54,857 nucleotides of DNA, taken from the IMG/VR virus record IMGVR_UViG_3300037635_001739, positions 1-54,857 of that record; one strand, given 5' to 3'. Source of the DNA: a virus. Its lineage: Duplodnaviria; Caudoviricetes. Position numbers and translations under genes: made by a program. Under the pieces are notes generated by a model, which made no database searches, was not told the DNA's origin, and saw nothing but the letters and a program-made list of their open reading frames with translations. Shown piece after piece: positions 26,349 to 48,390 of this stretch; within the stretch, counting starts at the first letter, position 1, and every line of letters starts with the position of its first letter.

Positions 26349-29300
26349 ATGAACGAAGAAGCATTAAAGTACTCATTTGATCTGTTTGTGAAAGATGGAT
26401 ACAATGGCACCATAGACGATTATAAAGAGCTTATTAAAACAAATGATAAGGCTAGATCAGTTTCTTATAATTTGTTCACCAGTGATGGCTATAATGGCTC
26501 TGACGCTGACTTCAATAATTTAATGGGTATAGATAACACTATAATGTTATCAGATGAAGAATTGGGAAAGACAAACGACTCTGCGAATGTGGATCCAAGT
26601 GTGGAGTCAGACACTACGGGATCTGGATTGGACGATGGTTTTTCGGAGTCTCAAGAAAAAGATACGGGAATTGAAAGATTATTCGGTAAGAACGAAGTTA
26701 CTGATTTTTTCGGGGATATAGCTAGGGCTTGGCAATCAGGTACAGCTCAAGGAAGATCTTTAGATTCCGCTATAGAAATATTTAAGAGTGGCAAAGACAT
26801 GACTGAAGATCAGTATGTTGAATTTGTTGAGCAAGCTCGGGCTATGGAAGATGCTGGTCAAACAGATGAAATGATAGAATTTGGCAAGCAATATGCTAAA
26901 GATAAAGAAGAATATGGAAGTGTAGGTGGGTTTTTTACAAGTTGGTGGAAAAATCCAACAGTAATGACTCAATACACTGCACAGTCATTAGCTAATATGG
27001 CTTCTAGCGCAAGAAACAGTGAAGAAGCTGCCTTAATGGCTGCTGGCGGTGTTGTAACCGGAGCAGGAATTGGTTCTGCTATTCCAGTTGTTGGGACTAT
27101 TTTAGGAGGACTATCAGGCGGGATGGGGGCTTTGTCTGGAACTATGGAAGTAGGTTTTACTACCGCCCAGTTATTACAAGAAGCTGCAATCGATGCCGGT
27201 AAAGATTGGAATACTATGTCCAACAAAGAGCGAATAGACTGGACTAAAGAAGTTGTAAATAATGAAGAACTATATAACGATCTAACCAACAAGGCTTTAA
27301 GAAGAGGTATTGCTATAGGATCTATAGATGCGGTTACCGGAGCTTTGACTGGCGGTATAGGTGGAGCTGCTAGAACAGGTGTTACTGCAACAACTAAAAG
27401 TGCTCTTGCTGGAGCTGCTGAAGTTGCTGCTGTTGCTGCTACTGAAACAGCTGGAGGATTAGCTAGTGAAATAGCTGGACAGTTAGCCGCTGAACAAGAA
27501 TTAGATGCTCAAGAAATACTTACTGAAGGATTTGCAGATAAAACGTTTACACTTGTAAATGTAGCTAGAGGAGGTTTAAAAGGCCCTAAGTATACATTAG
27601 AAGGTGAAAAAATGAATGGTAAAAGATTCAGAGAGGCTGTTCAAACAATGGACGATGCTACCGTTGCTACTGTGAAGTTTGAAATATCTAATGACCCTTT
27701 AATGGAGAAGATAATTCAGAACAGAAAACAAGATATAAAAATAGATCAAGAGATCGATGCCACTATAAGCGGAGTTGATGATAGAGCTGAAATAATTAAG
27801 CTACAAAAAAAATTAAACAAATTAAAAGGTAACGACAGTGTAACTGCGAGCAATACTAAAAAAGAAATACGATCTCAAATAACTGAAATACAAGATAAGT
27901 ATAAAGGCTCTGAAGTTGATGTAACTATTAAGCAACGCCAAGAAGCGGTGGCTAAGGCGGTTGATACTAAATTTGAAGAAAACTTTAATAAATACTATAA
28001 AGGGGCTAAGCAAGCAGCTAAAGATTTAGGATTTAAGCAAGGTCCTAAAATTTACAAAACAACTAAGGGGTACGAAAAAGCTATAGCTGCCAAAGAGGGA
28101 TTTGACTCTTTTGATAAATATATAGCTGATGTAGCTAAAAGAAAAAACATATCTATTGAAAAAGCCGCTGAAATATCAAGAGGATCAGATGGTGTATTCT
28201 TAGGTGAGGGCGTTATGTTCATTGATAAACAAAAAGCTAAAGAAGTAGGTGCTATTACAGTTGCTTCTCACGAACTATTACACCCTGTGTTTAATGCAGC
28301 TATTGGTGATGCTAAAGCACAAGGTAAAATAGTTAGAGAGTTTAAGAAGGCAATGACTTCTAAACAAAAAAGATTTGTTAGGAATAAACTTAAAGCTAAT
28401 GTGAATCCAGCAGACTGGAACACAGAATATCTAAATTACTTTTCTGATGCAATATTAAAAGGAGAGATCAATTACGACAAAACTCTATTTGAAAAACTAA
28501 AAGATGTTGTCTTAAGAGTATTAAAAGGAGCTGGATTTGAAAATGTTTCTTTTGATAGCGGTAGAGAAGTATATAACTTTTTAAAAGAATACAATACTAG
28601 CTTAAAAGAAACTGGACAGGTAAGTGAAAAAGCAGTTGAAGCTATTAAGACTGCAGAAACAAAACGTACTACTAAGCTTAGAAAAGAAAATGCAGATGCT
28701 CCTGAAGTAAAAGCAGCTACTATAAATAGATCAGGAGATATACAAAAATCGGTTAATCAAGAAATACTAGATTTAACGGAGGCATTAGATGCCGCGGAAG
28801 ACGCTTATGCAGCGGATCCAAATAATCCTACATTGGAAAAAAATGTAGAGCTAGCTGAAAAAGCTTTAGACGAAGCTGAAGAAAGAGCTATATCTGGTGC
28901 TCCAAAACCTAAAGTTGTAGCTCCTAAACCTAAGAAAGAAGTTAAAAAAGAAGTTAAGAAAGAGGATAAGCCTAAAGCTAAAAAAGAAACAACTAGCAAG
29001 CAAAAAGAACTTAATGAAAAAGTTGATAAGCTAGCTGGTAAAAAAGACGAAGACGGTAATTACGTAATGTCTAAAAAAGAATGGGATAGAACTGGTATAG
29101 GTAAAGCTAGTCAATCCATTATTTATGGTGACATATTAAATCCGTTAATAACAAGAGGTATAACTGGAGAAGGAGTACAAGGAAAGTCTTTACAGGACTT
29201 CATACAGGCTGTTAAAGATGAATTATTACCTGTGCTAATGAATTTTAATCCTGAGAAAAACAACAGTTTAATAGGGTGGATTAATAGTCAATTACGTTTC

Positions 29301-32300
29301 AAAAAAGGTAATGTACTAAAAAGATTCAAGAAAGAGGCTGATCTTGGAGGTAAATCTTTAGACGTAGAAGCTGGAGAAACAGGTTTTGCAGGAAATATAT
29401 CAGGAGACGCTGGTGTTATTAGAAACTTTGCAGATGAAAAGCAAATTGCGCCAGACAAACTTGTAAAAGCATCGAAAGTAATAACCTCTAAAGTTAGAGC
29501 GGACTTAGCGAACATGCTAAAAACTTGGGCTAGCCAAAATAATATAGATTTCGATACATTTAGATTTGGAGATGTAGATGCTAATGCTACTGTTAAAATA
29601 GACGGCAAAGATGTTAAAGTATTAAACGAAGTATTAAAAGAATTATTCCCAGGCGTTGATCCTGAAAAGTTTTTAGATAGTCGTACTATGTTCACCAGTG
29701 GAGAAGCCTCTATTGTTCTAGGTAAATTAGCTGAGAACGATCAAGAATTAATAGAACTATTTATAAATCTTCTGCCTAGAGGGGCGGTAATGCCTAAAGG
29801 CAAGAATAAAGCTGTAGTTAAAGACGATAATTATGGTAAATCTACTAAGCTAGATGGTTCCATATTGAAAAACTTTTACGATAAAGGTACAGAAAGATTC
29901 ACTAAAAAAGCTGGACTTACACCATTTATATTGAAAGATAATATTCGTTACAGTGACGTACACAAAGCTTTTGGAATGGATTCATCCGGTAATAAACTAA
30001 ATTACCAAAGAGCCAAATCTGGGATTGTATTATCTTCTGCTTACAAAATGTTAGGTAAACTAATAATGAATGAAGTTATTAGAACAGACTTAGGGTTAAC
30101 CGCTGAGCAGAAAATGAATGTGGGCGCTGGTAAAAGTGATTTACAATTTAGTAAAAGTGCGAGTGTCCTTGAGGCTTTAAATGTTGAGGGAACTGAAAGT
30201 TTTAGAAATAACTTTTACCATACACGCGAAAAATATAGAAAAGCAGGCCAAGATTTATTAATTGAATTATCTTTTAGGTTTACTCCAGAAGAAGTTAGAG
30301 ATTACATACTGCCTTTAATTTCTGATGTAGACGGCTCTAACTATAAGCAAGAAGCAAGGTTACTTTTTAGAAACAAAACTCATTTTTTTAGAAAACTAAA
30401 AGAGCAAGCAAAAAGTAAATTTGGAGATTACAAGCCTAATCAACGAAGAATATCTGTTGAAGGCGGAGCCGAGTTAAAATTAGCAAAAGTTACTAGCGAA
30501 TATTACCAGGGAGCTTCTTTTATACAAGACATTAAGGCTTTTGTAGGAAATATAAAAGATAGACAAACATTTGCAAAAGAGCAGCAAAAAGGGTTACTTA
30601 AAATAGTTAAAACATTGTCAGAAATTTTAGATGAAACTTCTTCTAAAAAAGGAGGGTTTGATCGTAAAGATTTTGAGAATATATCATTAGGTATATTTGC
30701 TTATTTTAACTATTTAAACACTAAAAATAAGAACGGAATACTTCGTACCTCAGCTGTTCCTACGCAAATGGCTATAATTCCAAGGCTTTTAGGATTTAAA
30801 GATACACCTGTAAAATATATTTACGAACATACTCAAACCGCTTCCGATACATCGGGAGAATTAATGCAATTAGTCTTTAATAAATTTGCGAAAAATCAAA
30901 AATTTGGCAAAAACCCAAATATTGAAAAAGAATTTAAGGAAATTATGGATGGGTATACGGTTGCGTTGATACCAAAAATCTATGATAAATTATTAAATAC
31001 AATAGCTAAAGAAAACGGAGACAGAGAAGGTACTAAAACTAGGAAAGATTACATTAAAAAATTATTGAAGCCAGGAAAAGACGGCATTCCCACTAGGTAT
31101 AAAATACCTGCTTTTGAAAAGCTACTGGAAGAGAACGGGTTAGAACCTTTACAGAATATACTTACGCCTATTGATCAAGCTAATTACGACGCTATCGTAA
31201 ATGGGAGAGAAGCTCAGTTTTCTATAAATAGAGTAGAAGTTACTGAAACCTTAAACAAGGCTAACAATAACGCTAATAATATCAATGCTAAACCTAAAGG
31301 TATAAGTGTTTGGGATTTTGACGATACACTAGCTAAGACTAAAAGTAATGTATTATATACAATGCCCGGGGAAATTAGAATATTCCACGGCGGTGATATA
31401 AAATCAGTCAAAGACATTGCTGGATTTGTATATTTTTCAGAAGATAAAAAACAAGCTGCAGCCTACGCTAAAGGCAATCAAGGAGAGATTAGTAGTTTTA
31501 AGATAGACGAAGCATCTATTGCAACAGAAGATCAAGTGTTTGATGTTATTAACAACTTAGATATTAAGCCAAGAGCTGGTTATGCGGTAGACGAATCTAA
31601 CTTATATGAACTTATTGATCCTAGATTTGAGCAATCATTTTCTAAAAAAGATCTTGAAAAACTAGCAGTAGCGCTTAAAAGAAAAGGAATAAAGGCTGCA
31701 CGATTTACAGATACCAATATTAGCCAAGGTAAAAATGAAGGAAGAGAAACTGAGAACGTTGTGGTATTTGACAAGAAAGTTGTGCAGGAACAAAATAAAC
31801 TAGATGCTGAACAGTTTGCAAAAGAAGGCGATAAGTTAATGGCTGAGGGGGCTGATTTTGACTTTAGTGAATTCAGTAAAGTTGTTAATGGAAGCAAGGG
31901 GCCTTTCTTTGAAAAGGCTATGGCTAGAAATAAAAAGTTTGGAAACAAAAATGTTTTTATACTTACAGCTAGACCGGCAAACAGCGCAAATGCTATACAC
32001 GAGTTTTTAAAAGGTATTGGATTAAACATACCTTTAGAAAATATTACTGGCTTAGCTAATTCATCACCTCAAGCTAAAGCTGATTGGGTTGTAGGAAAAG
32101 CTGCAGAAGGTTATAATGACTTTTATTTTGCAGACGACGCCATTCAAAATGTTAAAGCAGTAGCTAAGGCATTAGAGGTGCTAGACGTTAAGAGTAAGGT
32201 TAGACAAGCGAATGTACAGTTTTCTAAAAGCATGAACAGTGAGTTCAATCAAATGATTGAAAAGAAAAGCGGTATTGATGCTAGAGGTACTATATCTAAA

Positions 32301-34250
32301 TACAAAGCATCGGTAATGGGCCGTAAAAAAGGTCGATTCCAGTTCTTTATACCACCTGGAGCCGAAGATTTTGAAGGTCTAATGTATAAGTTACTAGATA
32401 AGGGAAAGATTGGGGAGCAACAAAAAGAGTGGTTTAAGAAAGCATTGTTTGATCCTTTTGCTAGAGGAATAAACGAATTTGACACATATAAGCTGCAAGT
32501 AGCTAATGCTGTTAGGCAACTTAAAAAGTCTTTAAAGAATATACCTAAAGAATTAGGAAAAAGAGATCCTAAGACAGATTTTAAATATGAAGATGCGGTT
32601 AGAGTATATCTTTGGCAATTAAACGGCCACGAAATAAAGGGAATATCCGAATCCGACATTAAGGCTTTAGTAGACATTGTTAAAAATTCTCCTAACTTAA
32701 AAAGATTTGCAAGACAACTAAATAAAACCATGGGTGGCTACCCCGCTCCTCAAGAAAGTTGGTTAGCTGGTACTATTACAACTGACGCTATAAATATGGT
32801 TAACACCATAAAAAGAAAAGAGTTTTTAGAAACTTGGCAGCAGAATGCAGACATAATATTTTCAGAAGATAATCTAAATAAACTAGAAGCTACTTTTGGA
32901 GAAGATTATGTTGAAGCTTTAAAAGATTCTTTATATAGAATGAAATCTGGGCGTAACAGGCCATCTGGAGCCAACAAGTTAACCAATAGATTTATGAATT
33001 GGGTTAATGATTCTGTAGCAACCATAATGTTCTTTAATACAAGATCGGCATTGCTACAAACATTGTCAACCGTAAACTTTATAAACTGGGGTGATAATAA
33101 TCCATTATTAGCAGCTAAAGCTTTTAGTAATCAAAAACAATTTTGGAGTGATTTTTCAATGTTATTCAATTCTGACTTTTTAAAATCTAGACGTACAGGA
33201 TTAAAGAACGATGTAAATGCCGATGAAATTGCTAATGCTGCTGCTACACAAACTAATAAAGCTAAAGCCGTCTTAGCTGTTTTACTTAAAGCCGGGTTTT
33301 TACCCACACAAATGGCAGATAGTTTCGCTATTGCAATGGGTGGAGCATCTTTTTACAGGAATAGAGTTAATACTTATATGCAAAAAGGTGAAGGTAAACC
33401 GGGTATGGGTAGACTAGCAGCAGAGGAACAAGCATTTTTAGATTTTCAAGAAATAGCTGAAGCTACTCAGCAATCATCTAGACCTGATAGAGTATCACAA
33501 CAACAAGCTAGTCCGCTGGGACGTATTATATTAGCTTTTGCGAATACACCTATGCAATACATGAGATTAACTAAAAAAGCTTTCTTGGATCTTAAGAATG
33601 GGCGTGGCAGTGCTAAAGAGAATATTACTAAAATGCTTTATTATGCGGCAATACAAAATGTTATATTTAGTAGTTTACAAGCTGCTTTGTTTGCGATGCT
33701 ATTTGACGACGAAGAAGAAGAAGAAACTAAAAAGAAAGGAACTAGGGTGGCTAATACCATGTTGGATTCCATGCTTAGAGGTTTAGGTATATACGGAGCT
33801 GTAGCTTCTACGGTAAAAAACATTGCGCTCGAGATTGATAAGCAATCTAAAAAAGATCGCCCTGACTATTCAGAAGCAGCGGTAAAAGCATTAGATTTAT
33901 CTCCGCCTATATCTTCTAAAATAAGAAAAGGCAGGAGTGCCGGTAGAGCTTTTAGCTATAAAAAAACTAGAGAAAAAATGGTTGGGTTTGGGTTAGACAA
34001 TCCTGCTTACTACGCAGTAGGTCAAATAACTTCGGCAACTGCTAACATACCATTAGATAGAGCAATAGGAAAAGCAAATCATGTTAGACTAGCATTTGCT
34101 CAGGAAACTAAATTTTGGCAATCGGTATCTTTATTATTAGGATTTAGCGAATGGGATCTTAATATGATAGAAAAAGATAAAAAGAAAACTAAATTTGGAA
34201 AAAAAATGAAGTGGAAAAAAAGAAAACTTAAGAAAAGAAAACTTAAATAA
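26349..34250 (+). CDS. Giant polyvalent internal virion protein (membrane-like segment, zincin protease, sigma2-like segment, HAD phosphatase with ART insertion, helical C-terminus)
   Basis: 2633 aa; Gly/Ala hydrophobic stretch; HELLH at 28269-28283; DFDDT...LTAR...K...FADD; FHGG...YFS-x4-A-x2-YA...ENVVVFD. Confidence 0.75.
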   Translation: MNEEALKYSFDLFVKDGYNGTIDDYKELIKTNDKARSVSYNLFTSDGYNGSDADFNNLMGIDNTIMLSDEELGKTNDSANVDPSVESDTTGSGLDDGFSESQEKDTGIERLFGKNEVTDFFGDIARAWQSGTAQGRSLDSAIEIFKSGKDMTEDQYVEFVEQARAMEDAGQTDEMIEFGKQYAKDKEEYGSVGGFFTSWWKNPTVMTQYTAQSLANMASSARNSEEAALMAAGGVVTGAGIGSAIPVVGTILGGLSGGMGALSGTMEVGFTTAQLLQEAAIDAGKDWNTMSNKERIDWTKEVVNNEELYNDLTNKALRRGIAIGSIDAVTGALTGGIGGAARTGVTATTKSALAGAAEVAAVAATETAGGLASEIAGQLAAEQELDAQEILTEGFADKTFTLVNVARGGLKGPKYTLEGEKMNGKRFREAVQTMDDATVATVKFEISNDPLMEKIIQNRKQDIKIDQEIDATISGVDDRAEIIKLQKKLNKLKGNDSVTASNTKKEIRSQITEIQDKYKGSEVDVTIKQRQEAVAKAVDTKFEENFNKYYKGAKQAAKDLGFKQGPKIYKTTKGYEKAIAAKEGFDSFDKYIADVAKRKNISIEKAAEISRGSDGVFLGEGVMFIDKQKAKEVGAITVASHELLHPVFNAAIGDAKAQGKIVREFKKAMTSKQKRFVRNKLKANVNPADWNTEYLNYFSDAILKGEINYDKTLFEKLKDVVLRVLKGAGFENVSFDSGREVYNFLKEYNTSLKETGQVSEKAVEAIKTAETKRTTKLRKENADAPEVKAATINRSGDIQKSVNQEILDLTEALDAAEDAYAADPNNPTLEKNVELAEKALDEAEERAISGAPKPKVVAPKPKKEVKKEVKKEDKPKAKKETTSKQKELNEKVDKLAGKKDEDGNYVMSKKEWDRTGIGKASQSIIYGDILNPLITRGITGEGVQGKSLQDFIQAVKDELLPVLMNFNPEKNNSLIGWINSQLRFKKGNVLKRFKKEADLGGKSLDVEAGETGFAGNISGDAGVIRNFADEKQIAPDKLVKASKVITSKVRADLANMLKTWASQNNIDFDTFRFGDVDANATVKIDGKDVKVLNEVLKELFPGVDPEKFLDSRTMFTSGEASIVLGKLAENDQELIELFINLLPRGAVMPKGKNKAVVKDDNYGKSTKLDGSILKNFYDKGTERFTKKAGLTPFILKDNIRYSDVHKAFGMDSSGNKLNYQRAKSGIVLSSAYKMLGKLIMNEVIRTDLGLTAEQKMNVGAGKSDLQFSKSASVLEALNVEGTESFRNNFYHTREKYRKAGQDLLIELSFRFTPEEVRDYILPLISDVDGSNYKQEARLLFRNKTHFFRKLKEQAKSKFGDYKPNQRRISVEGGAELKLAKVTSEYYQGASFIQDIKAFVGNIKDRQTFAKEQQKGLLKIVKTLSEILDETSSKKGGFDRKDFENISLGIFAYFNYLNTKNKNGILRTSAVPTQMAIIPRLLGFKDTPVKYIYEHTQTASDTSGELMQLVFNKFAKNQKFGKNPNIEKEFKEIMDGYTVALIPKIYDKLLNTIAKENGDREGTKTRKDYIKKLLKPGKDGIPTRYKIPAFEKLLEENGLEPLQNILTPIDQANYDAIVNGREAQFSINRVEVTETLNKANNNANNINAKPKGISVWDFDDTLAKTKSNVLYTMPGEIRIFHGGDIKSVKDIAGFVYFSEDKKQAAAYAKGNQGEISSFKIDEASIATEDQVFDVINNLDIKPRAGYAVDESNLYELIDPRFEQSFSKKDLEKLAVALKRKGIKAARFTDTNISQGKNEGRETENVVVFDKKVVQEQNKLDAEQFAKEGDKLMAEGADFDFSEFSKVVNGSKGPFFEKAMARNKKFGNKNVFILTARPANSANAIHEFLKGIGLNIPLENITGLANSSPQAKADWVVGKAAEGYNDFYFADDAIQNVKAVAKALEVLDVKSKVRQANVQFSKSMNSEFNQMIEKKSGIDARGTISKYKASVMGRKKGRFQFFIPPGAEDFEGLMYKLLDKGKIGEQQKEWFKKALFDPFARGINEFDTYKLQVANAVRQLKKSLKNIPKELGKRDPKTDFKYEDAVRVYLWQLNGHEIKGISESDIKALVDIVKNSPNLKRFARQLNKTMGGYPAPQESWLAGTITTDAINMVNTIKRKEFLETWQQNADIIFSEDNLNKLEATFGEDYVEALKDSLYRMKSGRNRPSGANKLTNRFMNWVNDSVATIMFFNTRSALLQTLSTVNFINWGDNNPLLAAKAFSNQKQFWSDFSMLFNSDFLKSRRTGLKNDVNADEIANAAATQTNKAKAVLAVLLKAGFLPTQMADSFAIAMGGASFYRNRVNTYMQKGEGKPGMGRLAAEEQAFLDFQEIAEATQQSSRPDRVSQQQASPLGRIILAFANTPMQYMRLTKKAFLDLKNGRGSAKENITKMLYYAAIQNVIFSSLQAALFAMLFDDEEEEETKKKGTRVANTMLDSMLRGLGIYGAVASTVKNIALEIDKQSKKDRPDYSEAAVKALDLSPPISSKIRKGRSAGRAFSYKKTREKMVGFGLDNPAYYAVGQITSATANIPLDRAIGKANHVRLAFAQETKFWQSVSLLLGFSEWDLNMIEKDKKKTKFGKKMKWKKRKLKKRKLK

Positions 34251-34909: not shown

Positions 34910-35236
34910 ATGAGTATATATTTTAAAGAGTGTGAAAAAAACATGGACGAAGACTTCCTAGCTAAACTAGACAACGCTAGAGTTATAGCTGATATGCCGT
35001 TCATAATAAATTCAGCATGGCGAAGCCCCGAACACAACAAAGATGTTGGAGGGAAACCTAATTCTTCACATTTAAAGGGTTTAGCTGTAGACATAAAAAT
35101 AGAAAACAGCAGACAAAGATTTATTGTATTACAATCTTTAATAGCTGCAGGATTTAATAGAATAGGAATTGCAAAAACATTTATTCACGTCGACGGAGAT
35201 AAAGATAAAGATCCGCGAGTAACTTGGTTATATTAA
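34910..35236 (+). CDS. Endolysin, peptidase M15A family
   Basis: INSAWRSPEHN..VGG...SSHLKGLAVDI...FIHVD zinc-binding motifs. Confidence 0.9.
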   Translation: MSIYFKECEKNMDEDFLAKLDNARVIADMPFIINSAWRSPEHNKDVGGKPNSSHLKGLAVDIKIENSRQRFIVLQSLIAAGFNRIGIAKTFIHVDGDKDKDPRVTWLY

Positions 35237-35386: not shown

Positions 35387-37249
35387 TTAAGTAATTTCAC
35401 AAGCTCCTCCAGCGCAGGCAAGTTCTCCTGACAAATCAGTTTCGTCATCGTCTTCTTCAATCTTTGCGATGTCAACTAGCCGCAAGGTTTCCATCATTTC
35501 ATTATACTTAGACTCATCTATATCTTCAAAGGGCGCTTGTACATAAGTGCCTCCATTGTAAGGCAATACAGATAGACCGTTATAAAACTTCTTATTATCC
35601 CACATCCATTCACCAATCATATCCCACTCATCTTCTTTAATAGATACAGTAGCAGATATATTGTGTGTGTTCCTGCCATCTCTGTGTCCTGGTTTAACCC
35701 ACATCTCAGATACAAACTTTACCCGCTCTAATAATTCTACAGGGTGCTCTGTTCTAAGCATAGATCCTTTTGGTGCTTTTTGCGGTATAGATATTACAGC
35801 TGTGTCGTGAGGTCTAAAGTATTCATCTTCAACTAACTCAGGATGGTTTTCAGCAAGGAACTTATACATTGACTCGTTCTTACCTACACGTATTCTTCTT
35901 ACATAATAATCATTATGCCAAGCGTGAATACCAGATGACGTTCCTAGCGTCAATGATGTAGTCCCTGCTGGTTTAACCGTTGTCGATCTAGCTGATGGAT
36001 TAATACCTATTAATTTTGCAACACGTTTATTCTCTGCTTTAACAAGTAAAGCCGCTTTATCCATGTCTAATTTTAAAACCTTCCCTGATCCAATTCCTGT
36101 TATTGAAACTCCAATTAAAGCATCTTTTTCTGTTGTAGTTCTCCATATATCTCTAAGATAATGAAAGCTCGTGTACGAGGCTTGTAATGTCCCTATGAGG
36201 GCTGCATTAGTTACACGCCTGTCAAACTCTTCTTGAGTATCTAAGTCCGATCCATTTACTTCACATAAATTACAAAATTGATAAGGTCTAAGTGCAATTT
36301 CACAACAAGGATTAGTACCCCAATCTTTATCATTAGTTAAATAAAAACCTGGCTCACCAGATCCGGATAACTCAATACGTTTCCACAAATCCATAAAGTA
36401 GGACTTAGTAAGCTTCTGTCGCATAAGCACAGCTGAATTATTAGCTCTACCACGCTGTGGATTTTTCTCCCACCAATCTCCTGACTTACAACCAATCATT
36501 TCAACATCATCAGATGAGAATAAAGATATTAAAGCTGCTCTTCTTATTCCTCCAGCTAAAACTGAATCGGCAATGTGACATATAATATCATGTGCTTGCA
36601 CTGTACTTAAGTAATCCCCGTCTTTTAATGAATCCAATATACCTGTTATTTTAACTATAGCTTCTTTAAGAGGTTGTGGTCCAGGTGCTTTACCACCTGA
36701 TGTTACAAGCCTTGCTCCTTTAGCGCGAATGTCAGAATAATCAAAGTCAATTCTAGAACTCCGTTTGTTACCTAAATATGATTTCATTAATACTTTAATA
36801 GCATCGGCCCAGCCCTCAATAGAATCCATAACTAAGAATCTTCTTGTGCGTTTTTCAAACGGCACGGTTACGGATGGCAACTTAGCTACATGATGCTTTT
36901 GCACTGAATAACCCACGCCTGTTCCACCTAATAATAAAAACATTGTTTCGCTAAATGCCGCTACAGATTCTACTGGCAAATAAGCGCAATTATATATCCT
37001 ATTAGGAGATATCTCGATAGGCTTGCCACCAAATTGTAGGCTACGCATGCTTGGTAATATATTTTTGCTATACACATCTTCATAAGCTGCTCTTATTTCT
37101 TTTTCTAAATTTGGAAACTTTTTTATATGCATTGATTCATTTCTAAACACAAGTTGATCCCATGTTTCTCTACGCTTTGTCTCTGGTATATATTTAGCAT
37201 ATTTCATAAATACCGTTATGTCACTTAATATTCTGTTAGATTTGTTCAT
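35387..37249 (-). CDS. nrdJ: Class II (adenosylcobalamin-dependent) ribonucleotide reductase
   Basis: YNCAY, TNPCCEI, CNLCEVN, TTVKPAGT and C-terminal CAGGAC; no beta subunit gene seen. Confidence 0.9.
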   Translation of the reverse strand: MNKSNRILSDITVFMKYAKYIPETKRRETWDQLVFRNESMHIKKFPNLEKEIRAAYEDVYSKNILPSMRSLQFGGKPIEISPNRIYNCAYLPVESVAAFSETMFLLLGGTGVGYSVQKHHVAKLPSVTVPFEKRTRRFLVMDSIEGWADAIKVLMKSYLGNKRSSRIDFDYSDIRAKGARLVTSGGKAPGPQPLKEAIVKITGILDSLKDGDYLSTVQAHDIICHIADSVLAGGIRRAALISLFSSDDVEMIGCKSGDWWEKNPQRGRANNSAVLMRQKLTKSYFMDLWKRIELSGSGEPGFYLTNDKDWGTNPCCEIALRPYQFCNLCEVNGSDLDTQEEFDRRVTNAALIGTLQASYTSFHYLRDIWRTTTEKDALIGVSITGIGSGKVLKLDMDKAALLVKAENKRVAKLIGINPSARSTTVKPAGTTSLTLGTSSGIHAWHNDYYVRRIRVGKNESMYKFLAENHPELVEDEYFRPHDTAVISIPQKAPKGSMLRTEHPVELLERVKFVSEMWVKPGHRDGRNTHNISATVSIKEDEWDMIGEWMWDNKKFYNGLSVLPYNGGTYVQAPFEDIDESKYNEMMETLRLVDIAKIEEDDDETDLSGELACAGGACEIT

Positions 37250-37399
37250 TTATAATACTCTAATTTTAAATTCATCTTGTTTTTTAACTAATTCTTTCCA
37301 TGAGATTTTACCCTTATTATTCCAGGACCATTTAACCCATTTAGCTATTTGTCTTTCGGCATAAGCTTTACGAGCTAATCGTTTATTGTTTCCTACCAT
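37250..37399 (-). CDS. Small hypothetical protein (49 aa)
   Basis: MVGNNKRLARKAYAERQIAKWVKWSW...; exactly fills the gap between neighbours. Confidence 0.5.
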   Translation of the reverse strand: MVGNNKRLARKAYAERQIAKWVKWSWNNKGKISWKELVKKQDEFKIRVL

Positions 37400-37835
37400 C
37401 TAATATAAGTTTAATCATTAATGCTACATCTTTTTGGTTTTGAGGTTTGTATAAAGTTCGTTTTTCATTATTAAGTGTACACCAAAGTTTAAATAACTTC
37501 CAGCGAAGCGGAAATTGTTCATTGGCTCTTCCTTTACATTCTATTATATAATCTTTACCTGTAAAGTCAGGAGTATATTTAATACCTAGTATTTTTTTCT
37601 GTCCTCTGTCTTTCATATCGCCTTTACCGTTTGATTGTTTCTCAAATGATATATTTGGAAAACGAAAACCTTCTAGCGTTTGAAATACTTCATCTTCATA
37701 CTTTTCAAATAACCCAGCCTCTTTCAAGGCTAAGTATGTATGTTTTTCTAAACCTGATCGAAAGCTGATCCCATCCGCAGTAGCTTTTTTAGCGCGGACA
37801 GGACCTTTTTTCTTTGATCTTTTAAAGCGTTTCAT
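37383..37835 (-). CDS. T7 endonuclease I-like Holliday junction resolvase
   Basis: FRSGLE...YTPDF...IIECKGR. Confidence 0.8.
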   Translation of the reverse strand: MKRFKRSKKKGPVRAKKATADGISFRSGLEKHTYLALKEAGLFEKYEDEVFQTLEGFRFPNISFEKQSNGKGDMKDRGQKKILGIKYTPDFTGKDYIIECKGRANEQFPLRWKLFKLWCTLNNEKRTLYKPQNQKDVALMIKLILDGRKQ

Positions 37836-38775
37836 TCTTTACAAATGATCCGTTAATCATAGAGCCCTTACGCTTGCTTATAACATCGTAAGCGGTAGAA
37901 ATACAATCTTCTATATTGTGTCCTGCTAAATGAGCTAGGTTTGTTAGTACAATAACAATATCACCTATTGCATCGACAATCTCAGGCTCATCTGCTTTAA
38001 TGATTGCTCTTGCAAGTTCGCCAGCTTCTTCTTGCATTTTTATGAATTGCGTCTTAATATCACCCTCTTCATATAAACCGCGCTCATTAGCCCATTCACG
38101 TATTGCAGGAAATATACATTGCTCACAGTTAGTTTCAGGCTTAACAAGATCATATATAACATCCCCGTCAATGTATGAATCACTTGTTGAGATATGACTA
38201 AGGGCGGGATGGCTAATAGATGGGCTTTGGAATAAAACAGGAGGTTCGGGTAATACACTTGACCTATTAATGTATTGCTTTAAGTTGCCAGTGAGCTTCA
38301 TTGCTTTAGTTAATGCTTTATTATATACATAACACCTGCTACTGTTGTACATCGATGTTCTAACATGCTCCTTGCACCAGCTAATTAAATCGTCGTCAAC
38401 AACAACTACTGCTCCGTCGTTTAAAGTAATCTGTTCGCCTCTGTTGTTCATAAGATATGCTGCTAGCTCTCTTGCATAACAAGGAAATGTTGTAGTCATA
38501 TCGGTAACATTAATTTTAAATTCAGTCATAGTTTTTGGTTTTTGTTTTTTCATTAAGTCTTTGTAGCTTTGCCTATCTACAGTGTAACCGTAAAATTTTT
38601 GGTATTCTATTTCTTTAATAGAAGCTGCTTCTAAATCTCTAGATACAAAAAGCAACTCAACTTCGTCGGGTTCATATCCTTGTTGTTCAAATACTCGATC
38701 TCCTAAATCTTTTGTCATACCTACTTTTATTTTAGGTATATGATAAACGTAATACATTGGTTTTGTTTTACTCAT
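37822..38775 (-). CDS. MazG-like NTP pyrophosphohydrolase with N-terminal GIY-YIG-like segment
   Basis: C-terminal KMQEEAGELA...DAIGD...AYDVISKRKG; N-terminal YYVYHIP..KVGMTKDL..R. Confidence 0.75.
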   Translation of the reverse strand: MSKTKPMYYVYHIPKIKVGMTKDLGDRVFEQQGYEPDEVELLFVSRDLEAASIKEIEYQKFYGYTVDRQSYKDLMKKQKPKTMTEFKINVTDMTTTFPCYARELAAYLMNNRGEQITLNDGAVVVVDDDLISWCKEHVRTSMYNSSRCYVYNKALTKAMKLTGNLKQYINRSSVLPEPPVLFQSPSISHPALSHISTSDSYIDGDVIYDLVKPETNCEQCIFPAIREWANERGLYEEGDIKTQFIKMQEEAGELARAIIKADEPEIVDAIGDIVIVLTNLAHLAGHNIEDCISTAYDVISKRKGSMINGSFVKNETL

Positions 38776-38786
38776 AGGGTTTTGTT

Positions 38787-39614
38787 TTATTTACCTACAC
38801 TCAGCGGGGCTGATATAGCAGGCAAAGGATTATAATTTTTTATTCTTATTTCATTTAATTCAGGTATATGTAATATAAATTTCGAATCTATAAATATACC
38901 ATAGTCTAATTCTAATTCAGCACATTTAGGATTGTTATGTCTGTATAAAAATTCATTAGCTTGATCTATATGATTATTATATAAATGACAATCACCTAAC
39001 TGCCCTATTAACCTACCCGGCTTTAAACCAGCGCCTTTAGCTAACATTTCTAACAACATTCCATACATTGCAATATCATAAGGCAATCCTAAGAATACAT
39101 CAGCAGATCGTTGCTGCCACATTAAATCTAGCTTACCATCATTAATATATACTTGAAACGCATAATGACAGGGGGGTAAAGCCATTTCCGGCATATCAAT
39201 TGGATTCCACGCACTAACCAATAATCTTCTTGACTTGGGATTATAATTTATATCATGTACTAACTTGTAAAACTGATCAAGTCCTCCAAAATCTCGCCAT
39301 TGCTTACCATATACTGGGCCTAATGTTTCATCCGTACGGCTAGATCTTTCATAGTCTGGCCTCCAATATTTAACACCATTATCTTCAAGATATTTTAAGT
39401 CTGTCCTACCGTTAAGAATCCATAATAATTCAGTTCTTGCTGCGTTGAAACTAATACGCTTTGCATTAATGATAGGGAACCCAAGAGACATGTCGTGTTC
39501 AATACTCCTTCCGAAGACTGATCTAGTTCCAGTTCCCGTACGATCTGCTTTAGCTTTTCCTCCATGCAATATAGCTGATAGTAACGCTCTGTATTCATCT
39601 TGTATATTATTCAT
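38787..39614 (-). CDS. thyA: Thymidylate synthase-family protein with Asp at the Asn177 position (possible dCMP methylase)
   Basis: DRTGTGT, ELLW, LGPVYG, SRR, LPPCH (Cys149), QRSADVFLGLPYD (Asp180), DCHLYNNH. Confidence 0.85.
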   Translation of the reverse strand: MNNIQDEYRALLSAILHGGKAKADRTGTGTRSVFGRSIEHDMSLGFPIINAKRISFNAARTELLWILNGRTDLKYLEDNGVKYWRPDYERSSRTDETLGPVYGKQWRDFGGLDQFYKLVHDINYNPKSRRLLVSAWNPIDMPEMALPPCHYAFQVYINDGKLDLMWQQRSADVFLGLPYDIAMYGMLLEMLAKGAGLKPGRLIGQLGDCHLYNNHIDQANEFLYRHNNPKCAELELDYGIFIDSKFILHIPELNEIRIKNYNPLPAISAPLSVGK

Positions 39615-39819
39615 TGCTTAGTACTGATTTAATTTTCTCAACGTAATTAGCCGCATCTAACAGCTCTTCTTGCAAATGTTGTAACCAAGTTAATAAACTT
39701 GAATTGTCGCCATCTAATGTGACCTTGTACTTATTAAAGCCAACATCTGATCTACTAACTAATTGATCAACGACCTTCTCAATTATTGGGTCTCTAAATT
39801 CTATTTCTTTTTTTGTCAT
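39607..39819 (-). CDS. Small all-alpha NTP pyrophosphatase-like protein
   Basis: G..KY..TL...WLQHLQEELLDAANY with an EExxD motif. Confidence 0.5.
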   Translation of the reverse strand: MTKKEIEFRDPIIEKVVDQLVSRSDVGFNKYKVTLDGDNSSLLTWLQHLQEELLDAANYVEKIKSVLSNE

Positions 39820-40070
39820 TTATTATATTTTTTATAGTAATAGTTATAAAATTCATACATCTTTTGCCATACTTTATTTCTAGGATATTCTTCTGGCGAT
39901 TGGTTAACGCGTTTATTAACTTCAATTATCAACCACCATTTAGTAGGTGTTCCTCTAACAGTAGGCTTAGGATAAATCCTTATTCCGTTCTTGTTACACC
40001 ATATTCTGGCAGCCTCTTCATAATCTTCTGCATTATACATACCCATCATTGATGTTTTTTTTCTAGGCAT
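39816..40070 (-). CDS. Hypothetical protein
   Basis: 84-aa ORF coupled to both neighbours. Confidence 0.6.
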   Translation of the reverse strand: MPRKKTSMMGMYNAEDYEEAARIWCNKNGIRIYPKPTVRGTPTKWWLIIEVNKRVNQSPEEYPRNKVWQKMYEFYNYYYKKYNK

Positions 40071-41780
40071 CTATTCCCAAGGCATTGATTGATCTTCAGC
40101 AGGCACATGAGGAATGTAACAGCCACTGTTTCTATCCCAAGTAAAGTGGCATTCAGCTCCGTTGGTTCCTAAGTTTTGAAACTTACATTTTAGTATCTTA
40201 ACTTTAACGGTATTAAGATCATAATTTCTATGAACTAATAAACCGTGATAACTTGCATCATACCATTCACCTCCACCTTTAATAGAATACATTGTTGGTT
40301 CGTCAATCTCACCGGTCTTTTGATTCTTATACATTTTAGTAGGGTGAGCAACAACAAAAACTAACACATCGTACTTCTTAGCAAAGACTTCAATCTTTGT
40401 TAAGTAATCCATAGTATATCTATTAACGTCGTCAGATTCAGCGTTAATATCTCTTACTTTGTTAAATGGATCAATAACCAGGCATTTAATACCTTTTCTT
40501 TTCACCAGCTCGGCTCCTTTCTTCAAGACAGCTTCAAGTGAATAGCGCTCCATATCAATGTGAAAGTAGTTGTCATTGCAATGATCTGCAATATGATTCC
40601 ATTTTTCTGTGTCAATATCTTCTTTAGCTGGCATACCTTGCCAGTGCTTACGCATTAATTTATGTGCGTGGAGAAACGTTGGTACATTTTCAGGCGAAGC
40701 ATAAGCTGTTTTCCAACCATACTTTTGATTATAGCCGACAACCATTTGATCGACAAAATCAGATTTACCGGAACTAGGTATGCCAGTGACAGTAATGAAC
40801 TGACCAGTATAAGTTGAAAATATGTCATCAAAGTTATCAAGGCCGATTTGAAATCCTGGTGTAAAACCATTGCGAACAAAGTCCGTAACCTCATCTTCAA
40901 TATCCCGGAACGTTGTAACGTTCTCCATTGGTACAGGTTTTGCCCCTGTAATACGCTTTGATAATTCTTCTTTTCCATATTTTATTAAGTATTCGTTTGC
41001 ATCTTTACAATCGTCGAATGTTGTTATATAACATACTTCAGATCCTAAACGTCTGATCATTTCATTTTGCAATGCTAAACCAGCATCGTCGGTATCTACT
41101 GCTAAGATTATCCTTTCTTTATCATCAAAGTAATCAATACAGTTATCTAAATAATCTAGGTTGTTTTGACCCAGTGTTGCACCGTTAGGCACAGATATTA
41201 CATTAGTTATGCCAGCTTCATGTAGTGCTAAAGCATCCATTTCACCTTCCACAATTACACAATAGCTATATCCAACTATCGAATCAATATTATAAAATAC
41301 TTTCTCAGCTCCTTTAACTAACTTAAAGTTTTTACGCCCGTCTCTGTATTTGACGTTTGTTAGCTTGCCACCCATGAAGTAATTGAAATGTATAGCATTT
41401 TCTTCCTTCTGTGTTTGAGGCATCCATTCCTTGCCCTCTGTAACTTTCATATCTACTAGTGTAGACTTTGATATTCCTCTACCTTTAAACCATTCAACAA
41501 CCGCATCTGACACTGCGTATTGTGAATCCTCTTTAAAAGGCTTAGGCATTTCATATACTTTCTCGGCCTTACCTTTTCTTTTATATGTGTGTAATTGAAA
41601 TGGCGTATTACAGTTATGGCATGTGCCAATACCCCTCTCCCAATCATAAGAGGCACACTTTGCTTTTTGATTTTTAGGTTTTCGATCATGAGAACACAGC
41701 GGGCATATACCTTGACTCTTCTCGTCTAGCTTATGCTGATTGTATACATCAATCTGAAAGCCGTTTATTTCGGTGATCAT
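40071..41780 (-). CDS. Primase-helicase (T7 gp4/Twinkle-like)
   Basis: Zn finger CPLC...CHNC; TOPRIM EGEMD...DTDDAG; KDANE; Walker A GIPSSGKS; LVIDP; VAHPTK. Confidence 0.92.
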   Translation of the reverse strand: MITEINGFQIDVYNQHKLDEKSQGICPLCSHDRKPKNQKAKCASYDWERGIGTCHNCNTPFQLHTYKRKGKAEKVYEMPKPFKEDSQYAVSDAVVEWFKGRGISKSTLVDMKVTEGKEWMPQTQKEENAIHFNYFMGGKLTNVKYRDGRKNFKLVKGAEKVFYNIDSIVGYSYCVIVEGEMDALALHEAGITNVISVPNGATLGQNNLDYLDNCIDYFDDKERIILAVDTDDAGLALQNEMIRRLGSEVCYITTFDDCKDANEYLIKYGKEELSKRITGAKPVPMENVTTFRDIEDEVTDFVRNGFTPGFQIGLDNFDDIFSTYTGQFITVTGIPSSGKSDFVDQMVVGYNQKYGWKTAYASPENVPTFLHAHKLMRKHWQGMPAKEDIDTEKWNHIADHCNDNYFHIDMERYSLEAVLKKGAELVKRKGIKCLVIDPFNKVRDINAESDDVNRYTMDYLTKIEVFAKKYDVLVFVVAHPTKMYKNQKTGEIDEPTMYSIKGGGEWYDASYHGLLVHRNYDLNTVKVKILKCKFQNLGTNGAECHFTWDRNSGCYIPHVPAEDQSMPWE

Positions 41781-44016: not shown

Positions 44017-44769
44017 TTACAGATAATCAACCACTTGCGACGGTGAAACATTAGCTATTAATTTATCTATTGCTTCCTTTTTTATTTGCGAAATTCTTAC
44101 GTTAGCGGTATTAACTTGAATGCCTAAAAATTTAGCGATTTCGTTAGCTCGCATTTTATCGCAGTCAAGCCCGTAAAATAATCTTATTACCTGAAATTGT
44201 GTATCATCTAAATGGGATTTCATTATGCTCATTAAATAAGCGTTTAATATATTTAAGTTATATTTTGGATGGTTATCCTCTATCTGGTGGTATATATTTT
44301 CTCCATTAGAATCTACACCTGTTTCCAGCTTATTAAATATAGAATTAAAGAACATTGACACAATAGCCTCATCATTGGGATTTTTGCGTATTTCGTTTAT
44401 CTTATGCTCAGGGATTCTCATATCGCCTCTATTAATGTCTATAGCTCTTCGTATGGCTCCTTTGATTCTTTTGCTAAAGAAACTTTTTAATGTTTTTTCT
44501 ATATCCCCGGATTTATTAAGAGATTCCCAATCTAATTTATCAACTGCTTGTATTAACCCTGCGCTTCCTTCCTGAATAAGATCATTTATAGTCATTACAC
44601 CGGACGCTTGCTGTGATGTAGAAAATTTTCTAGCTAAATTCTCTACAAGATACATGAATTTAATTATAAGCTCATCTCTAGTGTACTCATCCCAAAATTT
44701 ACCTTCAGGCATAGATAGTTTTAAATCTTCTTTATATCTTACGTAATTTTGTACGTTGTATTTTTTCAT
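44017..44769 (-). CDS. Phage RNA polymerase sigma-70-family factor
   Basis: Region 2 LVENLARKF...DLIQEGSAGLIQAVDK...RIKGAIRRAI; MRIPEH; region 4 helix-turn-helix EIAKFLG...RISQIKKEAIDKL. Confidence 0.85.
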   Translation of the reverse strand: MKKYNVQNYVRYKEDLKLSMPEGKFWDEYTRDELIIKFMYLVENLARKFSTSQQASGVMTINDLIQEGSAGLIQAVDKLDWESLNKSGDIEKTLKSFFSKRIKGAIRRAIDINRGDMRIPEHKINEIRKNPNDEAIVSMFFNSIFNKLETGVDSNGENIYHQIEDNHPKYNLNILNAYLMSIMKSHLDDTQFQVIRLFYGLDCDKMRANEIAKFLGIQVNTANVRISQIKKEAIDKLIANVSPSQVVDYL

Positions 44770-47907: not shown

Positions 47908-48390
47908 TTATTCGAATTGCGAAGCGCAGGTGTATAGCACTTCTTTGTTAGTATTAGCACAGTGTGCTTTCTCATTAATATAATAGTTACGGTATGCAGC
48001 AACAGAATCGTTTTCAACTTTGTATTCATCAGGCATACATTGAGGCATTTCAGTAGGACCAATATTAAATATAGGACCGGGTGTTTGTGACAATACGTCG
48101 CGACATTTAGCTATAGTTAAGTGTTCTTTACCATAACGCTTTTTGTATTCTTCACCAAGAGCCATCATGTGAAAGTACAACCAAGCGTAATTAGATCTTG
48201 ATGTTCGTACCCACACGGCAGATGGATGGTTTTTATGCGTTAACTTGTAAGGAACATCGATTTCACTGTCAAGCATTATATGTGCAGAACAGAGTAGTTG
48301 AGCTGACTCAAGGATCATTTTAACAACGTGCTTGTTGTATTGTAATTGTGCAGCACGCTCAGGGTCGGAGTTTAAATAAAATATATTCAT
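47908..48390 (-). CDS. Pyrimidine-dimer DNA glycosylase (DenV/Pyr_excise-like)
   Basis: MNIFYL..DP..AA....KHVVKMILESAQLL...THKNHPSAVW...EYKKRYGK.H. Confidence 0.8.
   Translation of the reverse strand: MNIFYLNSDPERAAQLQYNKHVVKMILESAQLLCSAHIMLDSEIDVPYKLTHKNHPSAVWVRTSRSNYAWLYFHMMALGEEYKKRYGKEHLTIAKCRDVLSQTPGPIFNIGPTEMPQCMPDEYKVENDSVAAYRNYYINEKAHCANTNKEVLYTCASQFE

Follow-up and report, generated by a model that had tools for sequence, protein, structure and literature searches.

In thymidylate synthases (TSs), replacement of Asn177 by Asp (E. coli numbering) moves the enzyme to dCMP and yields 5-methyl-dCMP (PMC8670742), and a single substitution made in the laboratory turned E. coli ThyA (N177D) and L. 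casei TS (N229D) into dCMP methylases (as cited in PMC8670742 and PMC13326640). Positions 177 and 147 were reported to discriminate best between the TS homologs of modified and unmodified contigs, with PRA-PH one of the domains found together with TS in the modified ones (PMC8670742, MetaGPA 2021). Furthermore, the Xp12 homolog and five of seven metagenomic Asp177 homologs gave 5-methyldeoxycytidine in E. coli under co-expression of the T4 dNMP kinase (bioRxiv 10.1101/2024.12.05.627091). That an Asp177 ThyA homolog with a PRA-PH or MazG neighbour predicts cytosine-modified phage DNA is a principle already published and used to screen IMG/VR (MetaGPA 2021; the 2024 deaminase preprint; NAR 2026). 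The subject here is a ThyA-family gene with Asp at this position (38787–39614, minus strand), together with its MazG-type neighbour, in the IMG/VR virus record IMGVR_UViG_3300037635_001739, which was analysed whole (54,857 bases, ‘the window’ below; completeness estimate 86%). As predicted from sequence, its product is most likely a dCMP 5-methyltransferase (5-methyl-dCMP synthase). The reading preferred here, at a little better than an even chance, is that of a dCMP methylase in a phage whose DNA contains 5-methylcytosine (5mC).

A ThyA-family enzyme with Asp at position 177

The 275-aa product matches PF00303 over profile positions 2–266 of 266 (E 5.4e-81) and phrog_160 (E 2e-95). Against solved structures, HMMER matched 125 chains (best E 8e-70), with 43–48% identity to bacterial enzymes; identity to E. 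coli ThyA is 43%. The motif QQRSADVFLGLPYDIAMY is found in the protein, and its Asp180 (codon GAT, 39075–39077, minus strand) lies 31 residues past the catalytic Cys149 (codon TGT, 39168–39170, minus strand), which corresponds to E. coli Cys146 in the context ALPPCHY, with Leu143 and His147 kept. Asp180 aligns with the Asn of GVPFNIASY in solved TSs by HMMER, and with Asn177 of E. coli ThyA, the pyrimidine-specificity residue, by MAFFT. The Asn177-to-Asp reading made in the initial annotation proved exact, coordinates included, by both alignment methods, and its description of residue 177 as the dUMP/dCMP switch agrees with the literature (PMC8670742; bioRxiv 10.1101/2024.12.05.627091). At 264 bits, the protein lies well above the cut-off (108) of TIGR03284, the NCBI equivalog for TS, where AXL1 gp63 (of the Xp12 group, which comprises the TS homologs of Xanthomonas phage Xp12, Stenotrophomonas phage AXL1 (gp63) and Pseudomonas phage PaMx74 (gp52)) scores 106 and T4 gp42 scores 31. 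By these scores the window protein is by far the most ThyA-like among the Asp177 enzymes compared.

Conservation of the Asp was determined across related loci and database homologs. A search of IMG/VR for related loci returned 201 stretches, of which 196 encode a relative, and the best 80 (63–99% identity) were kept; the best 120 of 8000 scored database homologs are 71–95% identical. A clade table of 191 sequences was produced by combining these 120 proteins with 71 distinct open reading frames (ORFs) of the 80 loci, two sets that may overlap. Asp occupies position 177 in all 80 loci (GAT in 74, GAC in 6) and in all 120 homologs, thus in 191 of 191 sequences. Contigs from four marine metagenome runs cover 39069–39109 and show no other letter at 39075–39077, although the runs may share one campaign or be the window's own source and are possibly non-independent. 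A sequencing error, a possibility raised in the initial annotation, can thus be set aside, and the Asp is kept throughout the clade. As it is invariant under both codons with Asn one base away, the Asp is held by selection.

The same contigs revealed the abundance and variation of the locus. Over 38700–39900 the word depth is ~400–500, and ~90 in the fourth run; a second variant, at about one-third of the depth, differs at six positions within 39402–39535, and the letters of the window at 39110 (G>T) and 39114 (C>T) are replaced in every one of the four runs. Megablast of 37000–41000 against phage records, from which entries very near the window may be missing, found no cultured close relative, and the best protein-level TS matches are at most 46% identical. 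The genomes of the related stretches are ~60–66 kb.

The clade is surrounded by ordinary TSs. Of the best 150 cluster representatives (clustering at 50% identity), 134 carry Asn, 14 Asp and one Ser at position 177, and one was missed by the motif pattern. A FastTree phylogeny of 120 rows was built from 105 of these representatives (the 45 outside 240–345 aa being dropped), 10 chosen clade members, the window and four references (E. coli ThyA, AXL1 gp63, PaMx74 gp52 and T4 gp42). An Asp-only group of 13 rows, consisting of the window clade plus two more Asp representatives, is nested within Asn177 enzymes with local support of 99, and the Xp12 group and gp42 fall on far, long branches. Parsimony counts 12 changes of the Asn/Asp state, at least four of which are forced by well-supported branches. 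On this tree, which is quick and unrooted and gives the direction of change only through Asn being the majority state, the window clade is an independent Asn-to-Asp lineage within ordinary ThyA, apart from the Xp12 group and T4 gp42.

The 14 Asp177 representatives themselves fall in several separate lineages, some with His147 and some with Pro or Trp there, and P0131 has Ser177. An ‘LPYD’ motif (F176Y plus N177D) was considered as a methylase signature common to the clade and the Xp12 group and was rejected, as Tyr176 is also found in many Asn177 representatives.

Published rules relate further positions to the reaction catalysed. Methyl transfer is associated with a bulky hydrophobic residue at 143 and hydroxymethyl transfer with Asp or Glu there, while D169N is the mark of 5-hydroxy-dCMP synthases (PMC13326640). 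Hydroxymethylases are characterized by Asp or Glu three residues before the Cys, by Ser/Thr-x-Tyr and by absence of the C-terminal tail, which in TS seals the site for hydride transfer (PMC6400193). In the clade table, Leu143, His147, Asp169, Trp80, Tyr94 and Glu58 are each invariant (191 of 191), and the tail is kept (Ile258, Ala260, Leu262, Ser263 and Val264). The retained His after the catalytic Cys, to which the initial annotation drew attention, is thus a feature of the whole clade. The segment ahead of Tyr94 is Pro-Val-Tyr, as in E. coli. Moreover, Cys146, the phosphate-binding Arg21, Arg126, Arg127 and Arg166, and Glu58, Tyr94, His207 and Tyr209 are all found in the window enzyme and each in 190–191 of the 191 sequences, and the only catalytic residue departing from canonical ThyA is Asn177.

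By the published rules, the combination of Asp177, Leu143, Pro-Val-Tyr94, the C-terminal tail and Asp169 points to a dCMP methylase and to neither a hydroxymethylase nor a 5-hydroxy-type enzyme, and none of the signatures of the latter two was found in the clade enzyme. The rule for position 143 is a correlation, as the Xp12 group itself has Asn there in the alignment. The initial annotation had allowed for either 5-methyl- or 5-hydroxymethyl-dCMP; of the two, the methyl product is favoured by Leu143, Pro-Val-Tyr94 and the tail.

The clade has also fixed changes of its own: Trp83 is absent from 191 of 191 sequences, Cys168 is replaced by Ala or Val, F176Y and I79Y are present, a four-residue insertion occupies the Trp83 site (residues near 80–100) in the whole clade (n=191), and the C-terminus extends one to two residues past the usual Val, mostly as Gly-Lys. 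The change in the Trp83 region and the C-terminal extension may together represent a co-adapted alteration of active-site closure.

Some of these features could also be accommodated by a dCMP hydroxymethylase like T4 gp42, in which case the DNA would carry 5-hydroxymethylcytosine or a derivative. Asp177 is common to gp42, the loss of Trp83 and the C-terminus two residues longer count in favour of this reading, and dihydrofolate reductase (DHFR), which such an enzyme would not need, was not found in the window or four near-complete relatives. Yet Leu, rather than Asp or Glu, stands three residues before the Cys, Pro-Val-Tyr replaces Ser/Thr-x-Tyr and the tail is kept (signatures as in PMC6400193). 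Moreover, gp42 itself belongs only to the 24% identity class and sits on a far branch, and a scan of 27 window proteins recognised neither a glycosyltransferase nor any further tailoring enzyme. A hydroxymethylase is therefore considered improbable. A 5-hydroxy-dCMP synthase of the RB69 gp48 or DLP3 gp80 kind has Asp177 alone in its favour: the diagnostic D169N (PMC13326640) is absent, with Asp169 throughout the clade, and no arabinosyl- or glycosyltransferase genes were seen, which makes this the most remote of the readings considered.

The MazG fusion protein and the 70-aa hairpin protein

The gene next to the synthase (37822–38775, minus strand) encodes a 317-aa three-part fusion protein, modelled by AlphaFold2 (AF2) with a mean predicted local distance difference test (pLDDT) score of 81. 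Its C-terminal part (residues ~215–317; 37825–38133, minus strand) is a MazG-type all-alpha NTP pyrophosphohydrolase domain, matched by PF03819 at 26.5 bits against a cut-off of 22, and both MazG and PRA-PH are matched by 61 of 61 family members. For this part, Foldseek gave a probability of 1.0 to 2yxh, 1vmg and the mouse dCTPase 6sqw. In VIA, too, the 12 best-scoring chains (Z 8–9.6) are without exception MazG, PRA-PH or related pyrophosphatases; mouse dCTPase ranks 10th and 14th. Five acidic residues, E249, E250, E253, D268 and D272, are invariant. From these profile and fold matches, the C-terminal domain is of MazG fold and belongs to the NTP pyrophosphatase family; no significant BLASTP similarity was found between the 317-aa protein and either AXL1_64 or T4 gp56. 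The MazG gene adjoins the synthase gene in 79 of the 80 loci, the exception (L017) being a record with terminal repeats that ends 64 bases past the synthase. The pairing of synthase and pyrophosphatase on which the initial annotation relied is thus borne out, with PRA-PH likewise found beside the Xp12-group enzyme.

The N-terminal part (residues ~1–70; 38566–38775, minus strand) is a beta-beta-alpha-beta-alpha domain, with strands at 8–13, 17–21 and 40–45 and helices at 24–31 and 48–61 in the AF2 model. T5orf172 is weakly matched by 34 of the 61 members (E 3.6e-4 at best) and MUG113, also weakly, by 29, and Y11, H12, K17, G19, T21, R27 and E55 are invariant. The domain is probably of the GIY-YIG (T5orf172/MUG113) type, the profile matches being weak and the Foldseek and VIA searches with the 317-aa model being filled by the MazG domain. 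Between the two lie a second structured domain (residues ~85–165), which has no family match, and a disordered linker. A putative nuclease–pyrophosphatase fusion beside a candidate dCMP-modifying enzyme recalls, by analogy, T4 endonuclease II and dCTPase.

On the other side of the synthase lies a 70-aa protein (p70; 39607–39819, minus strand), the stop of which overlaps the synthase start. It is modelled (AF2, pLDDT 91) as a hairpin of two helices only, at residues 10–30 and 41–67, and R8, D9, R22, S23, K29, Y30, W44, H47 and the QEELxD motif (Q49-E-E-L-x-D54) are invariant. p70 is present in 70 of the 80 loci, either ahead of the synthase or after the MazG gene. Moreover, in 44 of 106 longer homologs (proteins of ~220 aa) the p70 domain directly precedes a MazG domain closely like that of the window, which points to a partner and not to a second enzyme. 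Other p70-domain fusion partners are DUF1064, an Fpg/Nei glycosylase, glycosyltransferase family 8 and pentapeptide repeats (P0275–P0344), and the domain looks like a mobile accessory module.

In the initial annotation the synthase was flanked by two NTP pyrophosphatases. One of them stands, as the C-terminal third only of the 317-aa protein, whereas p70 was dropped from this role for want of any profile or fold support. A Pfam scan of 55 p70 family members (E up to 0.1) gave weak DUF matches only, and the best hit of a profile search of solved structures (E 0.038) was an unrelated ribosomal protein. Foldseek with the p70 model returned nothing below E 4, a protein atlas search returned unnamed viral clusters only, and hhalign of p70 against the MazG family gave a probability of 0.15%. 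p70 is probably an accessory or partner of the MazG enzyme rather than a second pyrophosphatase, as its fusions suggest.

Gene content and the predicted pathway

A pathway can be proposed for the preferred reading, a dCMP methylase with 5mC in the phage DNA. The MazG domain, perhaps with p70, would most likely hydrolyse dCTP (or dNTPs generally) to the monophosphate, by analogy with the described systems, and p70 would probably work with it; this hydrolysis would supply the synthase with substrate while reducing dCTP as a competitor. The Asp177 enzyme would use 5,10-methylene-tetrahydrofolate to convert dCMP into 5-methyl-dCMP, releasing dihydrofolate that host DHFR would recycle. Host kinases would raise 5-methyl-dCMP to the triphosphate, and the host replicase, recruited through the phage primase-helicase, would incorporate 5-methyl-dCTP, with C partly or fully replaced by 5mC. 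The conversion of dCTP to dCMP and the methylation of dCMP rest on signatures and analogy; the dCMP substrate, the methyl product, the substrate of MazG, the phosphorylation by host kinases, the incorporation of 5mC and any protection from restriction are inferences.

Several observations weigh against this reading. First, parts of the proven systems (deaminase, kinase, family A polymerase and DHFR) were not found. Neither dCMP deaminase (PF00383) nor ThyX nor thymidylate kinase is matched in the window. No match to dCMP deaminase, the thymidylate-kinase family or family A polymerase was found in the window or in five relatives that are 98–100% complete, and DHFR (PF00186) was not found in the window and four near-complete relatives. 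The kinase probe PF02223 is weak, as it finds nothing in AXL1 or PaMx74 either and gave one weak, sub-threshold match in T4, which encodes the dNMP kinase gp1. In a scan of the window, the primase-helicase and a protein of 2633 aa were the only ones with a Walker A motif. The caveat of the initial annotation that no dNMP kinase or DNA polymerase was recognised thus holds, and widens to deaminase, DHFR and a second TS in near-complete relatives. With no recognised kinase, polymerase, deaminase or DHFR, any 5mC DNA would depend on host enzymes.

Second, exactly one PF00303 gene is present in 14 of 14 near-complete relatives; the enzyme is the sole TS of the phage, passes the equivalog cut-off and could still be needed for dTMP. 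Third, His147 is kept in the whole clade, whereas position 147 differs in modified contigs (PMC8670742); in the alignment it is Pro in the Xp12 group and Thr in T4 gp42. Fourth, with Trp83 lost and the C-terminus longer, active-site closure may differ, to judge from the alignment, from that of canonical TS. Fifth, three of three loci that encode the hairpin domain fused to MazG have no TS homolog nearby, and Cellulophaga phage phi10:1, the closest cultured relative by primase-helicase (44.5% identical), has a small MazG and no synthase; the presence of MazG is thus not specific. Finally, certain palindromes are depleted: CATATG occurs 0 times in the window against 10.3 expected and GATATC twice against 12.3, and CATG has an observed/expected ratio of 0.58 over 777 kb of clade loci, which are homologous stretches and not independent samples for such counts.

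Several of these points would also fit an ordinary TS (dUMP to dTMP), or a dual dUMP/dCMP enzyme, that tolerates Asp, with MazG as a general pool enzyme and the DNA unmodified. Such an enzyme would fit the 43% identity to E. coli ThyA and the TIGR03284 score. It would also fit the retention of the other catalytic and phosphate-binding residues, including His147 and Leu143, the presence of no other TS or ThyX in the record and in 14 of 14 near-complete relatives, the lack of the phage's own kinase, polymerase, deaminase or DHFR, the occurrence of MazG without TS in related and unrelated phages, and the depletion of CATATG, GATATC and CATG. However, all 191 sequences retain the Asp, through both codons, although Asn is a single base away, and Asn is the state of 134 of the 150 nearest cluster representatives while the Asp group forms its own supported clade. 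This alternative is judged unlikely, albeit the likeliest of the rival readings.

The overall palindrome statistics argue, weakly, in the other direction. For 4-mer palindromes containing C or G, the observed/expected ratio is 0.96 in the window and 0.98–1.02 in the Xp12 group, compared with 0.68 in phi10:1, an unmodified relative, and 0.82 in an 18-kb piece of the fully modified T4. The lack of an overall depletion of such palindromes is at most weak evidence for modification. The window has no match to C5, N6/N4 or Dam-type DNA methyltransferase families. GATC is over-represented in the window (206 against 152), and GGTACC has an observed/expected ratio of 0.29 over the 777 kb of clade loci.

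A dCMP methylase need not imply 5mC in the DNA. 5-methyl-dCMP might instead serve as a route to thymidylate, with host dCMP or dCTP deaminases giving dTMP or dTTP and little 5mC reaching the DNA. Xp12-type phages have been proposed to make dTTP by deaminating 5-methyl-dCTP (bioRxiv 10.1101/2024.12.05.627091), and the window genome, which has no other TS, is AT-rich (35% G+C). On the other hand, the window and five near-complete relatives show no deaminase, so that this route would rest wholly on host enzymes, and it would offer no clear gain over the ordinary TS that the lineage evidently had before the switch. It is accordingly given a low probability, similar to that of the hydroxymethylase.

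A more extensive version of the preferred reading, with 5mC in the phage DNA, can be put forward as speculation, and as a whole it is rather doubtful. In it, the three-gene set of Asp177 ThyA, GIY-YIG–MazG fusion and p70 would be enough for 5mC DNA with the host polymerase and no recognised phage nucleotide kinase, deaminase or DHFR. The GIY-YIG domain would cut unmodified (host) DNA, like T4 endonuclease II, and supply dCMP; MazG, tuned by the hairpin, would destroy dCTP and spare 5-methyl-dCTP. A single Asn-to-Asp change in an ordinary phage ThyA would have given rise to the system, which would mark a large, abundant, uncultured marine clade.

The synthase and its partners lie within a conserved gene order. 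The plus strand of the window carries terminase, portal and structural genes, and the minus strand a tightly packed early-gene string, in the order primase-helicase, 84-aa ORF, 70-aa ORF, ThyA homolog, 317-aa ORF and DUF1064 protein, several of which overlap by a few bases. The primase-helicase (40071–41780, minus strand; Toprim plus a DnaB/KaiC-like ATPase; PF13155 E 4e-13, phrog_239 E 1.7e-88) lies upstream of the synthase within this string and was found in 77 of the 80 loci. The DUF1064 or resolvase-like protein (37383–37835, minus strand; PF06356 E 1.6e-6), which overlaps the end of the MazG gene, is the conserved downstream neighbour in 76 of the 80.

Beyond the DUF1064 protein, after a gap, follows a B12-dependent ribonucleotide reductase (35387–37249, minus strand; PF21995 E 1e-6, PF02867, phrog_367 E 1.5e-122). 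Its best NCBIfam match is TIGR02505, adenosylcobalamin ribonucleoside-triphosphate reductase (E 3.4e-72), which is below the cut-off, and by sequence it is closest to the triphosphate-reducing (RTPR) type. A reductase that makes triphosphates would fit a need to lower dCTP to dCMP. However, it is found in only 5 of the 80 flanks and 4 of the 14 near-complete relatives; being this rare, it is not part of the conserved module, and the placement of nrdJ with the cassette in the initial annotation is not upheld.

Elsewhere in the window, a 160-aa protein (47908–48390, minus strand) matches PF03013 (Pyr_excise, a pyrimidine-dimer DNA glycosylase of the T4 endonuclease V type; E 4e-5, narrowly over the cut-off) and phrog_624 (E 1e-50). 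A 250-aa protein (44017–44769, minus strand) matches phrog_351 (RNA polymerase sigma factor; E 5.6e-22), its sigma-70 region 2 and 4 matches being weak. Two giant ORFs on the plus strand, of 2280 aa (15233–22075) and 2633 aa (26349–34250), together take up ~27% of the record. The former matches virion structural protein families; the latter, which contains one of the Walker A motifs, matches only a single uncharacterized family. Where the late genes give way to the early ones lies a 108-aa ORF (34910–35236, plus strand) with a motif resembling that of lysins of the peptidase M15 or D-alanyl-D-alanine carboxypeptidase type.

Comparison with described systems

T4 gp42 shares with the window enzyme the TS superfamily, the catalytic Cys and Asp177, and works beside a dCTP pyrophosphatase (gp56, by annotation). 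It differs in Asp143, Thr147 and the missing C-terminal tail, and is 24% identical to E. coli ThyA where the window protein is 43% identical. T4 has, besides, a TS, a kinase, a polymerase and glucosyltransferases of its own. In phi10:1, the absence of a synthase is accompanied by two DNA methyltransferases. The relationship to this phage and the label Polaribacter on one clade homolog suggest that the hosts are probably Flavobacteriia.

The Xp12 group provides the closest functional parallel. ThyA fold, Asp177 and Asp169 are common to both, an all-alpha NTP pyrophosphatase directly adjoins the synthase in both (AXL1_64 and PaMx74 gp53 being PRA-PH), and the predicted product, 5-methyl-dCMP, is alike, that of Xp12 having been shown in vivo (bioRxiv 10.1101/2024.12.05.627091). 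However, the enzymes are only 26–29% identical (tblastn) and lie on separate tree branches, and Pro147, Asn143, a shorter C-terminus and a large insertion following position 83 set the Xp12 group apart. In AXL1 and PaMx74, moreover, genes for DHFR, deaminase, synthase and PRA-PH follow one another and DNA polymerase I is also encoded; of these, only the synthase and a pyrophosphatase were found in the window clade.

The published screen demanded a deaminase on the same contig (bioRxiv 10.1101/2024.12.05.627091); with none found in this clade, the clade would have been passed over, and no publication on it was found in the open-access literature. The present finding extends known biology, the 5-methyl-dCMP synthase of this phage group being a prediction. 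To this it adds a large clade of uncultured marine phages, a switch of independent origin in a canonical ThyA background, a gene set of unusually small size and a GIY-YIG-like–MazG fusion with a detachable hairpin partner. If the prediction is true, a widespread and abundant marine phage group (196 IMG/VR stretches; word depth of 400–500) would have 5mC-substituted DNA, with bearing on restriction escape and on the behaviour of marine viromes in methylation-sensitive methods. One residue change in ThyA plus a pyrophosphatase would then suffice for genome modification without a phage polymerase, kinase, deaminase or DHFR. For annotation the case is a warning, as a protein that passes the NCBI equivalog is named ‘thymidylate synthase’ by pipelines and the switch is masked.

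Canonical ThyA has Asn177, in contrast to the Asp of every member of the window clade, and the window enzyme can be compared with the mutants made in the laboratory (N177D of E. coli ThyA, N229D of L. casei TS). Their canonical background (His147, Leu143, Asp169 and the tail) is also that of the window enzyme, whereas the window lineage has further fixed C168A/V, F176Y, I79Y, the loss of Trp83 and two additional C-terminal residues. Judged by these residues, the window enzyme is a natural counterpart of the N177D-type mutants, and offers enzymology a natural, well-folded version of N177D.

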